Shown here: positions 30,479 through 54,402 of the stretch, in pieces
Layout: every line of letters starts with the position of its first letter
Position numbering within the stretch: position 1 is the stretch's first letter
Source of the DNA: Octopus vulgaris
Lineage: Eukaryota
Direction: 5' to 3'
NCBI GenBank assembly: GCA_951406725.2
Contig: OX597840.1
Location: forward strand, 1,612,001 to 1,676,000
DNA length: 64,000 bases
Made by a program: the position numbers and the translations under genes
Notes under the pieces: generated by a model
What the model was told of the DNA's origin: nothing
The model's input: only the letters and a program-made list of their open reading frames with translations
Databases searched by the model: none

Positions 30479-30694
30479 CTTTATTTAAAGCAGCAGAAAA
30501 TTCAACAAAATCTGTTACTCTGAGTTTCTCGTTGCCGTTCATCAGACAGTTTTTGCTACAATGGAACCGATATATCAATTCAATCCGGATTGAATTGATA
30601 TATCGGTTCCATTCTAGCAAAAACTGTCTGATGAACGGCAACGAGAAACTCAGAGTAACAGATTTTGTTGAATTTTCTGCTGCTTTAAATAAAG
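30479..30694. repeat. 216 bp spacerless palindrome (108 bp arms, one mismatch)
   Basis: Centre caatcc|ggattg at 30586/30587; arms run from ctttatttaaagcagcag to ctgctgctttaaataaag. Confidence 0.95.
30619..30666 (+). ncRNA. Type I hammerhead ribozyme motif (mirror copy on minus strand, 30507-30554)
   Basis: aaaaactgt-CTGATGA-a-cg-gcaa-cg-a-GAAA-ctc-a-ga-GTA-acagatttt: stem I ctgt/acag, intact core, weak stem II, GUA cleavage triplet. Confidence 0.7.
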
Positions 30695-31267
30695 CATATT
30701 ACTCTACCACTGGTATTTGAGTACACTTTTTTCCACCTTGTTTCACATTTATGTGTTTACTCCGGTATATATATATATATATATATGTATGTATGTATGT
30801 ATGTATGTATATATTTCATAGTTTGTCTCCCATAGATACACATTCATGAGTATATATATATTTGCCTCTCAACCACATGTTCCCAGCTTCGTTCCCAGTG
30901 GGTGACATTTCCGGATATACATGTCTTTTACCTTTTATCTTTTTTATGCCAAATGGTGACGAAGATCAACCTCAATACACAAATAATGAAATCCTATCCA
31001 ACATTTATATATATATTATATATATATATATATATGTGTATGTGTATGTATGTGTGTGTGTGTGTGTCTATGTATACGTATTTTCCCTTCAATTTGGTTT
31101 GCAAGATTCTCTATGTGAATCCGTTTTTAGAAGCATATTTTACTGTCTGGCGAAAGTCATTCTCTTTTAGTGCCTTATTAATTTAACACACTCATTTCTT
31201 TATTTCACTAAAATTTTCGTTGCGTCTTGCAACCTTTTCAACCAGATCCCAAAACGAAATACATAAA

Positions 31268-31520
31268 TAGGGAGAGTTTACGAAGAAAAAGACGAAGACA
31301 GGTGGTGTACGAAACAAACAGATGTATTAGTATAACGCTCAGGAATAGAAAAAGTCTTTTACGTTTCGAGCCTACGTTCTTCTACAGAAAGGGATGTAGA
31401 AAAAACAAGTTGAGAAACAAGGAGAGAAAAAAAAAACATGTTTAGTGGTTAACGATCTATCATGGCGTCTGCCAGACAGAAGGGTCACACACGAGGGGAG
31501 ACGAGAAAATATAGGATGGT
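31268..31520 (-). mobile_element. Dispersed repeat family D
   Basis: Matches 2097-2285. Confidence 0.75.
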
Positions 31521-32124
31521 TTAGAAAGTATAAATATAAAATAATGATAATAATAACAGTTTTACGCAAAGTTCAAAGGTTTATATATATATATATATAT
31601 ATATATATTAATAACTAAAACATATGCATATATATAAATATATATGTACGTACCTACCTCTACATGTACATATACACGCATATATGAGTACAGGACACCA
31701 AAAAGACGTCGAACACAATGAGAAACGAAAACATAGACACAAGCCCAAGGAACTGGACATTTTTCAAACAGCAAAAAAAAAAAAAAGTACAGGACAAATT
31801 AACACAAAGAAAAAACCCCTTCTTCAGTCGCTATGGTTTCATCTACTCTACGTTTCGAAGGTATATATATATATATATATATATATATATATATATATAT
31901 ATATATATATATATATATATATATGTATGTAAAACGTATATTAATAACAGTTGTATCGGTGTGTATATGCGCGAGTTGTGTGCCTGTATGCGTGGCTTTT
32001 CTAGCTGCGTGTGTATGGGTATGTCTAGGTGTATTATAATCAACAATATTTGACGTACATCTGCATCACGAGGAACTTCAAAGACTTTTCTAGTCCGCAA
32101 GACATTCCTTGACGTCTGTCTCTC

Positions 32125-32847
32125 AGTCTATCTATCTATCTATCTATCTATCTATCTATCTATCTGTCAATCTATCTATCTATCTATCTATCTATCTAAC
32201 TGTCTATCTATCTAACTATCTATCTATCTATCTATCTATCTATCTATCTATCTATCTATCTATCTATGTATGTATGTATGTATCTATCTATCTATCTATC
32301 TATCTATCTATCTATCTATCTATCTATCAGTATGGTTATCTATCTTTACTCATCTGGTATATGTGTGAGTGTAGAAAGAATAAAATCTCATTATCTCACT
32401 CATCTTCATCATTATTGGCATCGTTCTCAAAGATCCTTTTTATCTGGAATTTATTTTTCAACTTATCCAAATTCCTTTGCCTCTTCTTCTTCTTCTTCTT
32501 CTTCTTCTTCTTCTTCTTCTTCTTCTTCTTCTTCTTCTTCTTCTTCTTCTTCTTCTTCTTCTTCTTCTTCTTCTTCTTCTTCTTCTTCCTCTTCTTCTTC
32601 TTCTTCTTCTTCGTCTTCTTCTTCTTCTTCTTCTTCTTCTTCTTCTTCTTCTTCATATTTGATATTATTATTATTATTATTATTATTATTATTATTATTA
32701 TTACATTTTCATTATCATTATTATTATTATTATTATTATTAGTAGTAGTAGTAGTATTGTTATTCTTCTTGTTCTTCTTCTTCTTCTTCTTCTTATTATT
32801 ATTATTATTATTATTATCATTATTATTATCATTATTATTATTATTAT
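32125..32847. repeat. (TATC)n, (TTC)n and (TTA)n microsatellites
   Basis: Direct reading. Confidence 0.95.
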
Positions 32848-33333
32848 TGAGTGAGAGAGCAGTTCATGCCATCAAAGTGACACTGGGATAAAATATACGA
32901 AGCCCAATATACCCATCATGACTACCCGTCTGATAAGGGTACACCAGGCACATGCATCACAACCATATGTGCGTGACATGGCGATCTCATATCAAGATAA
33001 ACGGCACATGACCTTGCAGGTGGGGCCCAGTTAGAATTTTCTTCCGTTCGAGTAACACATCCTGCTCAAAATATCCCTGAATAAGGGTTGTTTAAGAATG
33101 ATGAACGAAACACCCATGTTTCCAGAGGTGAATTATCCAAACCCTAAAGAATCCCTCTCAACACATGGCTATGATGCTCCCCCACTGCTTCTGCTCGTGA
33201 TCATAGATGCACATATTGTCAGCCACTAAGGGACATGCTCAACTGGTTATGGTCAAACAACTGACAAGCAAATCTGTGGTATTGAGCAGAATATTTGCTG
33301 TAGCCCATCTTTTATATCAAGATAAAATGTACA
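32848..33333 (-). mobile_element. Probable non-autonomous interspersed element embedded in a (TAA)n tract
   Basis: About 490 bp of complex non-coding sequence bounded on both sides by (TTA)n-like tracts; the minus strand ends ...ctctctcactc(aat)n. Single copy here, class unresolved. Confidence 0.45.
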
Positions 33334-33447
33334 TCATCATTATTATTATATTTATCATTATCATTATTATTATTATTATCATTATTATTATTATTATTAT
33401 TATTATTATTATTATTATTATTACTATTGTTGTTGTATTTCACCCAT

Positions 33448-52159: not shown

Positions 52160-52345
52160 TCGCATGTTTCATTCAGTAGACTGCGGCCATGCTGGGGTAT
52201 CCCTTCGAGAATTATTAATACTTTTTTCATTTAACCTGTTCACTATTATATCCATCACATTTGCCGATCTCCTAAGTTACATGGACGTAAACGCACCAAC
52301 ACCGGTTTTCAGGCAGTGGTGGGTGACAAAACCGAACCCAAAGAC
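52160..52345 (-). mobile_element. SINE family B-related, diverged 3' part
   Basis: gactgcggccatgctgggg...ttgccga...ctaagttac...gacgtaaacgcaccaacaccggtt. Confidence 0.65.
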
Positions 52346-52760
52346 TCTCTCTCTCTCCCTTTCTCTCTCTGTGTTACACACACATACACGCAGATACACA
52401 CGTATACACACATACACGCAGAAACACACATATACACTCGTATATATATATATATATATATAATATTTTAGGCACTGGCATAATTTGGGTTACTTTCGTT
52501 GTTTGTCCCCTCTGTGTGTAACCCCTTGTGGGCAGTAGAGAAATAAGAATCGGTCTGGGTATATTTCCGTTTGCTCCACTTCAAGAACTCTGCAGTGTTG
52601 GTTGAGATAATACTATTTTACGCTTTTACTTGTTTGAGTCATTTGAATGTGGTATGCATGTATGTATGCATGCATATATACATACATACTTACATAGGCG
52701 CACCGCCGAATAAACACATACATACATGGACAAATACACACACATATATATGTATAGATA

Positions 52761-52991
52761 AGGCGGCGAGCTGGCAGAAACGTTAGCACGCCGGGCGAAA
52801 TGCGTAGCCGTATTTCGTCTGCCGTTACATTCTGGGTTCAAATTCCGCCGAGGTCGACTTTGCCTTTCATCCTTTCGGGGTCGATAAATTAAGTACCAGT
52901 TACGCACTGGGGTCGATGTAATCGAATGAATCCCTTTGTCTGTCCTCGTTTGTCTCCTCTGTGTTTATCCCCTTGTGGGTAGTAAAGAAAT
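52761..52991 (+). mobile_element. SINE family A, full length
   Basis: Head to tail match. Confidence 0.92.
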
Positions 52992-53031
52992 ATATATATG
53001 TATAGATATATATATCTATCAAATGAAATAA

Positions 53032-53306
53032 AAAAAACAGAGCACAAAGGATGTCGCGGTACACATGTTTCGAGCTTTATAAAACAACCTATTCTTACAT
53101 CAATGTATAATCGACATAACAGATAGATTAAAGCCCTCTTCAGCCGCACCTTTCATAATGTGCTAGTTGTCTTTGGTGTAGCAATTGCATGCGGCTGCAG
53201 AGGGCTTTAAACTATGTGTTATGTCGATTATACATTGATGTAAGAATAAGTTGTTTTATAAAGCTCGAAACATGTGTACCGCGACATCCTTCGTGTTCTG
53301 TTTTTT
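53032..53306. repeat. Fold-back element, 117 bp arms, 41 bp spacer
   Basis: 53032-53148 is the reverse complement of 53190-53306 with a few mismatches. Confidence 0.95.
53056..53147 (-). ncRNA. Type I hammerhead ribozyme motif with enlarged stem II
   Basis: gcgg-CTGAAGA-gggcttta-[49 nt]-taaagctc-GAAA-catgt-GTA-ccgc; the plus-strand twin (53191-53282) has a mutated core CTGCAGA. Confidence 0.8.
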
Positions 53307-53896
53307 AAGCACTAGAAGGTGCTTATACTTATCAAGTATTCACCCTGAATTTATTGTATAGATATATAGATATATAGAGAGTTCGCTTAATATGAGTCAA
53401 AGATATTGTGTCTACAAATTAAGATACTTCACGTCTGCTGTCAACATTTTGTTTACCTTATGTCCGTGAAATGTATTTAAAGCATCCATAGAAAATCCAA
53501 AACGACTAAAATGGTGTGAAGGAGGCAGAATAAACGCACCTGGCACTCGAGAAATATGTTTTCTGTCTTATCAGCATTATCGATTTTTGCTCATACAATC
53601 TCATCTCTGTACGTGATCTCTATGTGTGTGTCTCTCTTACACACATACAAACACATTCAGAATCACACAAGCGTATATATAATCATTTATTTATATTTGT
53701 GTCTGTCTTTCTGTACATACGTGCGCATGCATATGTATATATATATATATATATATATATATATATATATATATATATATATATATATAACTAACTGATA
53801 AGGGTGAGAAAATTGGATACTAATTTAATAGTACATCCATTTAACACCAAGTGGCCCAGTGCACAAAAAAACCTGGATTATGACAAAATTTTATAC

Positions 53897-54402
53897 ATAA
53901 ATATAAGAGAGTGGTCACTAAGTGGCTCACTCTGGCACTAGAAATAGATCCGATAGGTTTCAGCCACAAAATAAATGTTTCCAATGAAAGTCAGCACGAC
54001 TGTTAGCTCAAACGAACAGGACAAAGAAAAATAACAAAAATACAGATTATTTTGGGACAATTGTTTCGCTATTAATGAATTGAATGTAATTTTACTCACA
54101 GTAATTCACTTGTAGCTCATCGTTATGGTAAAATCTGGCATGCGATTTAGTATATTGTATTTTAGATGGTTTTGGCTGATGAGCTACAAGTGAATTACTG
54201 TGAGTAAAATTACATTCAATTCATTAATAGCGAAACAATTGTCCCAAAATAATCTGTATTTTTGTTATTTTTATTTGCCCTGTTCGTTTGAGCTAACAGT
54301 CGTGCTGACTTTCATTGGAAACATTTATTTTGTGGCTGAAACCTATCGGATCTATTTCTAGTGCCAGAGTGAGCCACTTAGTGACCACTCTCTTATATTT
54401 AT
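53897..54402. repeat. Fold-back element, 225 bp arms, 56 bp spacer
   Basis: 53897-54121 is the reverse complement of 54178-54402 with about 2 mismatches. Confidence 0.95.
54170..54249 (+). ncRNA. Type I hammerhead ribozyme motif, canonical core
   Basis: ttttgg-CTGATGA-gcta-[41 nt]-tagc-GAAA-caatt-GTC-ccaaaa: 6 bp stem I, 4 bp stem II base, palindromic stem III (acaattgt), predicted cleavage after C54243. Confidence 0.88.

Follow-up and report, generated by a model that had tools for sequence, protein, structure and literature searches.

Head-to-head fold-backs bearing hammerhead motifs in a window of the Octopus vulgaris genome: probable products of Penelope-type retrotransposition

The window analysed here is a 64,000-nt stretch of the Octopus vulgaris genome (assembly GCA_951406725.2, contig OX597840.1, positions 1,612,001 to 1,676,000 of the forward strand); its GC content is 34.5%, it has no N, and it is rich in (TA)n and dispersed repeats. 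A preliminary description, made from the sequence alone, had pointed to several distinct fold-back elements in this window, each carrying a hammerhead ribozyme motif, and had proposed that they are either solo inverted pseudo-long terminal repeats (pLTRs) of Penelope-like elements (PLEs) or members of a class of non-autonomous hairpin retroelements. Alignment bears out the presence, where that description had placed them, of four fold-backs lacking an open reading frame (ORF), which fall into three unrelated families: A (with its sibling A'), B and C. The number of 12-mer fold-back seeds in the window is barely higher than in shuffles (58 versus 31-53), and these seeds were used only for listing candidates; relatives within the window were found by self-BLAST. 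The four elements and their parts are as follows.

30474-30699, no strand assigned: element A, a spacer-less head-to-head palindrome with its centre at 30586/30587, 41 nt 5' of the hammerhead core
30628-30657, + strand: hammerhead of A from core to cleavage triplet GUA, with 10 of 11 pairs in stem I, 2 pairs in stem II and a near-palindromic helix III
30545-30516, - strand: mirror copy of this hammerhead, the core being intact on both arms of A
30700-30765, + strand: tail of A, about 66-71 nt, on a single arm only, ending at (TA)n and common to A'
50936-51170, no strand assigned: element A', an older sibling of A with a decayed hammerhead and a tail to about 51170
53032-53306, no strand assigned: element B, with 117-nt arms and a 41-nt spacer
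53060-53143, - strand: intact hammerhead of B, with core CTGAAGA, a stem I of 5 bp, a stem II of 8 bp and a loop of 49 nt
53307-53356, + strand: putative tail of B, 50 nt, assigned by position only, with no second copy in the window
53892-54407, no strand assigned: element C, with 230-nt arms and a 56-nt spacer at 54122-54177
53792-53891, - strand: tail of C, of about 100-105 nt, which continues the left arm as far as a long (TA)n and recurs in the relative D
54176-54243, + strand: hammerhead of C, with core CTGATGA, a stem I of 7+3 bp, a stem II of 4 bp, a loop of 41 nt and triplet GUC

The arms of A (30474-30586 and 30587-30699) match at 111 of 113 positions with a spacer of 0, the outermost 5 nt blending into TA, and those of C (53892-54121 and 54178-54407) match at 227 of 230 around their spacer of 56. 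The arms of B (53032-53148 and 53190-53306; spacer 41) agree at 111 of 117 positions, and those of A' (50936-51014 and 51017-51096) at 60 of 79. Local alignment against shuffles relates A to A'; A, B and C are mutually unrelated, their alignment scores being no higher than those of shuffles. In all four elements the hammerheads face outward and the arms are joined head-to-head. The claim that every fold-back carries a hammerhead stands only in part: the motif is present on both arms of A, on the - strand of B and on the + strand of C, but the + copy in B (53195-53278) has a mutated core (CTGCAGA), which leaves an intact core on the - arm only; the left arm of C ends within the core, so that the full core is on the + arm only; and the decayed hammerhead of A' fails the homologous fold. 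A protein search with the 44-aa frame of A found nothing, which is a weak test.

Hammerheads were searched for with a strict descriptor (an exact CUGANGA or CCGANGA core, GAAA, UH and a stem I of at least 4), and the null expectation was taken from 200 block-wise dinucleotide shuffles of the window and from 5000 shuffled arms each for A, B and C. Five matches were found in the window, at +30628, -30545, -53143, +54176 and +45038, the last of which is not inverted. Among the 200 window shuffles, 174 had no match, 24 had one and 2 had two, and the shuffled arms yielded a match in 0/5000 (A), 0/5000 (B) and 1/5000 (C) cases. Helix III is self-complementary in all five strict matches; it is perfectly palindromic in C and includes G-U pairs on the - strand of B. 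Hammerhead motifs with a self-complementary helix III are well over chance, and the enrichment over shuffled controls on which the preliminary description had staked the association is present. These motifs class as hammerheads by descriptor and not as Rfam members, and their self-cleavage is only predicted. Across the whole window Rfam gave 339 matches, and nearly all of the 150 that were listed are microsatellite matches to microRNA families; the matches to such families on hairpins B and A' fell under the gathering score and were rejected.

The elements also share an anatomy outside the ribozyme. A tail extends past the mirror point on one arm only, is 50-105 nt long overall, and is common within the pairs A/A', C/D and F/H (D, F and H are described below). 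The arm end and the tail end are fixed in A/A' and C/D despite 70-74% identity. Whether boundaries and spacers are constant across loci had been raised as a check, and within the window the answer is mixed: outer ends are fixed in both sibling pairs, but inner junctions and spacers differ, the centre of A' lying 21 nt 5' of its core at 50994 (-) versus 41 nt in A. The association with (TA)n that had been noted is also found, as 9 of 12 element ends are within 25 nt of a (TA) run of at least 4, compared with 11.8% of random non-TA positions; this enrichment is partly circular because some ends were set where TA begins. As the ends fall in TA-rich tracts, target duplications are unreadable. Of 258 filtered frames in the window the 150 longest were scanned with Pfam, without a match to reverse transcriptase (RT) or GIY-YIG, and no ORF combining the two is found at these loci in that scan; the elements are not classed as autonomous PLEs. 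All copies in the window are shorter than 600 nt. Its self-matches include no direct (partial-tandem) pLTR, which would be unexpected anyway in copies so short, and no head-to-tail tandem of any hammerhead family. Head-to-head inverted, 5'-truncated copies with a variable junction are seen in A, A', B, C, D and F.

Relatives elsewhere in the window separate the fold-back from the hammerhead.

16094-16393, no strand assigned: element D, a relative of C with arms of about 47-60 nt and an 87-nt spacer, without a hammerhead
51758-51899, no strand assigned: element F, a mini fold-back flanked by TA tracts, with arms of about 20 nt, a spacer of 7, a tail of about 95 nt and no hammerhead
35560-36022, + strand: element H, not inverted and of the same family as F; its hammerhead (35587-35668) is degenerate and its 3' end lies at (TA)n
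44992-45237, + strand: a copy that is not inverted and has no ORF, flanked by TA tracts, its type I hammerhead (45038-45085) intact
2099-2285, - strand: family E, non-inverted; further copies at 31259 to about 31530, 35028-35180 and 45268-45367, with a common 3' end and variable 5' extent

Fold-backs without a hammerhead are represented by D and F, and hammerheads without a fold-back by the copy at 45038, H and family E. D has its tail and outer end in common with C. F and H form one family, and H is split by a dispersed repeat at about 35698-35918. Family E is abundant and ends at (TA)n in three of its four copies; three of the four carry a variant minimal hammerhead-like motif, read by eye, which has an altered A6, a bulged A and a loop-less palindromic helix III and which escapes strict descriptors. 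A kinship between D and H, suggested by a 28-nt AT-rich match, was not accepted.

Element C gives the clearest view of a junction, which lies at about 54119-54121 with a microhomology of about 3 nt. Its spacer (54122-54177) is a 5' extension of the tail-less + arm and includes the opening bases of the core along with the 5' strand of stem I. An exact 27-nt pattern of C was found at 0 loci in metagenome contigs. The 24 runs considered all consist of contigs, those of X12 and X17 being conceivably from RNA, and the contigs of four runs (207, 333, 33 and 10 contigs) were aligned on 53792-54200, which spans the tail, left arm and spacer of C; the listing covers family C, with 24 of 120 loose ends and 32 of 590 pieces. 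Summed contig depth is maximal in 54058-54071, the mirror of stem II-GAAA-helix III, where it reaches 2.9e5 (X1) and 4.7e5 (X4), values that are not copy numbers; by this summed depth family C is shown to be abundant. None of the 25 listed variant positions falls within 54027-54152. Contigs departing at 54100/54104 run into a complete core in which position 7, the free position of hammerheads, is A, G or C (T in the window). Among the loose ends listed, contigs from X1 (2, median loose length 150 nt), X4 (6) and X17 (1) continue upstream of 54119 with no inversion, and their extensions beyond 54119, read over at most 30 letters, are shared sequence; one X1 contig connects the tail region to 54119 by a different route.

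The preliminary description had also supposed that a read-through transcript would form long double-stranded RNA (dsRNA) that sequesters its own ribozyme, so that cleavage might be gated by folding kinetics or by adenosine-to-inosine (A-to-I) editing. Formation of the dsRNA is reproduced in folding, but gating appears unlikely. Isolated hammerheads favour stems I and II (mean pair probability 0.82-0.99, with 0.01 for the alternative stem I of B minus). In the full elements A, B and C the probability of the hammerhead stems is <1e-15, and in prefixes ending 14 nt past the cleavage site it is also <1e-15, both values describing equilibrium folding and not kinetics. The ribozyme is thus predicted, by this modelling, to be sequestered within the hairpin in both transcription directions. 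In a head-to-head pair the antisense arm is transcribed first, whichever the direction; because it comes first and provides no same-sense partner for a dimer, gating by folding or editing is unsupported. A-to-I changes in the A-rich hammerhead core would tend to disable the core.

Published PLE insertions include an inverted 5'-truncated copy, carry a tail of 30-40 nt on one side and are biased towards microsatellites or (TA)n (PMC8557442), and head-to-head inversions with junction palindromes as well as solo pLTRs are also described (PMC3846280). The octopus elements resemble the inverted pLTRs of endonuclease-positive (EN+) PLEs (Penelope/Poseidon and Neptune; PMC8557442, PMC3846280) in having a head-to-head inverted, 5'-truncated copy with a one-sided tail, junction palindromes or microhomology, microsatellite or (TA)n flanks, and a repeat of about 100-290 nt that contains a hammerhead; unlike EN+ PLEs, these loci show neither an ORF nor, among the self-matches of the window, a pLTR repeated in direct tandem. 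In 2014, minimal hammerheads in Schistosoma that form opposite-strand pairs at a distance of 100-700 bp were already attributed to PLE copies that are truncated, and a self-complementary helix III is said in the same source to make metazoan hammerheads act as dimers (PMC4209133). The type I topology, the self-complementary helix III and the opposite-strand pairs within 100-700 bp recur here, as do the G10.1-C11.1 pair (in B and C) and a bulged base ahead of stem II (at 45038 and in family E) known from metazoan PLE hammerheads; the stem II of A, by contrast, has 2 bp and is without G10.1-C11.1 (PMC4209133).

In vitro, the protein of the Anolis Poseidon element (PAc) cleaves AT-rich DNA on both strands and extends them; it uses mainly uncleaved RNA, and its RT starts at two internal sites, between which the tail lies (PMC11167929). 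The octopus elements likewise have, downstream of the hammerhead, a tail delimited by two fixed 3' ends, and AT-rich targets; the passage of cDNA across an uncleaved hammerhead, a feature of PAc, would be shared under the origin that we propose below. The PAc ORF, however, begins in the hammerhead, and no such frame was detected here in the protein search with the frame of A. Animal non-LTR retrozymes, which form head-to-tail tandems with a hammerhead in each unit (bioRxiv 10.64898/2026.07.22.740005), are similarly short, non-coding, PLE-related and equipped with a type I hammerhead, but the octopus copies are head-to-head pairs and singles and fall outside the definition of retrozymes. Rearranged Penelope copies in Drosophila share with them inverted repeats able to form dsRNA, and in transgenic flies small interfering RNAs map to the inverted regions (PMC3681739).

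We consider it probable that these hairpins without an ORF consist of paired, head-to-head repeat ends that bear hammerheads, and that they arose, most likely, locus by locus through Penelope-type retrotransposition, with a ribozyme that is predicted to be inert in the hairpin. Of the two origins first offered, solo inverted products of the pLTR type are the one supported, on the strength of the tail, the head-to-head polarity, the TA-rich flanks and the dimer-type hammerhead. In the mechanism that we envisage, a PLE RT-endonuclease would cut both strands of an AT-rich target, and each target strand would prime reverse transcription of element RNA that is still uncleaved, beginning at one of two internal positions downstream of the hammerhead; the tail would be the stretch between these two RT start sites. 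Both cDNAs would halt after 20-290 nt, often just beyond the hammerhead, and their truncated ends would join via a short microhomology or palindrome, while non-inverted fragments would represent cases that kept only one cDNA. The hammerhead may be a passenger from the parent pLTR, where it would act as a dimer in tandem transcripts. The C spacer reads in the same direction as the arm without a tail. Snap-back of the tailed cDNA would instead leave it on the tailed arm, so that this element favours two cDNAs primed separately; the centres of A and A', which have essentially no spacer, agree with both joining models.

Several points weigh against this origin and need to be set beside it. The spacer argument for two cDNAs draws on one element, C. 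No RT/GIY-YIG parent was found, so that the PLE origin rests on structure and motif. The covariance-model check that had been called for came out negative: four targeted scans (right arm of A, B, right arm of C, and 45038) matched no hammerhead family of Rfam at E<=10. The tails are 50-105 nt long compared with 30-40 nt in published PLE insertions (PMC8557442), and the loops II of B and C, of 49 and 41 nt with internal hairpins, are unusual beside metazoan PLE hammerheads (PMC4209133). In all four named elements the distance from junction to core is no more than about 60 nt, a closeness that may reflect ascertainment or a preferred stop. Among the contig joints listed for family C there is no strand-change joint, and the contig test, being of one family, cannot say what share of copies reuses the C junction.

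Two alternatives retain a Penelope-type origin. The parents may themselves be non-coding, that is, non-autonomous PLE derivatives (retrozyme-like or SINE-like pLTR units; SINE, short interspersed nuclear element) mobilised in trans and leaving the same head-to-head by-products; this departs from the origin that we favour only in the nature of the parent, and we entertain it tentatively, as possible. The very high summed depth of family C, in which no ORF was seen, and the shortness of every window copy are in keeping with it, and both non-autonomous pLTR-forming PLE derivatives and retrozymes have been published (PMC8557442; bioRxiv 10.64898/2026.07.22.740005). A tandem-forming parent of this kind finds no counterpart among the head-to-tail self-matches of the window, however; contigs extend upstream by 150 nt or more, and extremely 5'-truncated coding PLEs would look identical. 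We are slightly more doubtful that the second arm arose by snap-back, with self-priming either on a single strand or on an antisense template, instead of from two separately primed cDNAs. Self-priming on an antisense template has already been proposed for PLE junction palindromes (PMC3846280), and the palindromic, essentially spacer-less centres of A and A' would suit it, but the sense of the C spacer speaks against it, as does the fact that both outer ends are fixed family positions, as two RT start sites predict.

Other readings dispense with locus-by-locus formation or with PLEs altogether. The second origin first offered holds that the hairpin itself is mobile, as a non-autonomous ribozyme-bearing fold-back retroelement with a fixed junction and with cleavage gated by folding or editing. 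Fold-backs do occur in three unrelated families with junctions near the hammerhead, the arms of A and C are 98-99% identical, and a fixed-junction subfamily would be compatible with the contigs; nevertheless, the junctions are unlike in both sibling pairs (A/A' and C/D), fold-back and hammerhead are found independently of each other (neither F nor D has a hammerhead), family C contigs run past the junction, and the inverted copy cannot provide a same-sense partner for a dimer-type hammerhead. The vanishing stem probabilities for A, B and C, whether folded in full or as prefixes (at equilibrium only), and the damage that A-to-I changes would tend to do to the core also count against it, and we regard this origin as very unlikely. 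The broader proposition, in which several unrelated families would have spread as ORF-less hairpins with a junction fixed just upstream of the hammerhead, a trans-mobilised class seeding thousands of dsRNA loci that feed ADAR or small-RNA pathways, is likewise unlikely. Least probable, and extremely so, are fold-back DNA transposons, or MITE-like elements (MITE, miniature inverted-repeat transposable element), inserting at TA, or assembly artefacts. Fixed outer ends, a variable centre and TA flanks also fit internally deleted DNA transposons, and assembly errors can yield perfect palindromes. However, a MITE or fold-back DNA transposon has symmetric terminal inverted repeats, unlike these elements, whose conserved tail of 66-105 nt stands outside one arm (in A/A' and C/D, with a one-sided tail in F as well), and non-inverted copies with variable 5' truncation occur; the DNA-transposon reading is largely refuted by the one-sided tails. 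An artefact is opposed by arms that differ at 2-19 positions and by an architecture that recurs in old, diverged copies.

We found no publication devoted to such elements in octopus, most subscription papers, Repbase-type annotations and supplements lying outside the scope of the search. PLE inversions, tails and opposite-strand hammerhead pairs have already been published, and what is new is these loci as further examples. Self-priming and priming on both strands are rival models of how PLEs make head-to-head inversions, and a genome dense in short, young inversions of several families suits a choice between them; what would discriminate between the models is which arm owns the spacer, together with the microhomologies at the junctions. 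The long-loop hammerheads of B and C, missed by Rfam, widen the range of known variants. The loci are also candidate sources of perfect dsRNA. They belong to an animal group known for heavy A-to-I editing.

Further features of the window were recorded alongside these elements. GT-type donor-like motifs were seen by eye in the long loops II of B (53240-53309) and C (54200-54230), and in B a pyrimidine tract followed by AG lies exactly at the arm/tail boundary, reminiscent of the Drosophila Penelope pLTR intron. An inverted repeat at 6480-6692 (53 of 58 positions matching, spacer 97, including flanking (GATA)n/(TATC)n) has CTGAAGA on both arms, facing inward; no complete hammerhead was found in it. 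ORF fragments at 43051, 44285 and 48062 resemble remnants of other non-LTR elements and are presumably, by their motifs, not of PLE origin; the fragment resembling a long interspersed nuclear element at 44285-44740 has a single protein match, 75% identical, with the source label Octopus vulgaris. A dispersed repeat pair, 24409-24547 and 26355-26490, is 85% identical; one copy ends at (TA)n, and no hammerhead was seen. Two very frequent SINE-like families have about 10 copies each in both orientations (for example 1433-2075, 11665-12108, 29287-29702 and 56284-56727), which creates many potential long-range dsRNA pairs; one of the two is bipartite, with a central (TA)/(CA) tract. A tandem array of units of about 174 nt occupies 10079-10720, and the same repeat is dispersed at 4801-4998, 11001-11205, 58840-59039 and 59797-59972. 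A 51-nt tandem array lies at 46619-47146, and its flank recurs at 48473-48607, across the non-LTR-like ORF remnant 48062-48364. The stretch 63003-64000 is a further tandem repeat, its period being about 60 nt, and continues off the end of the window.

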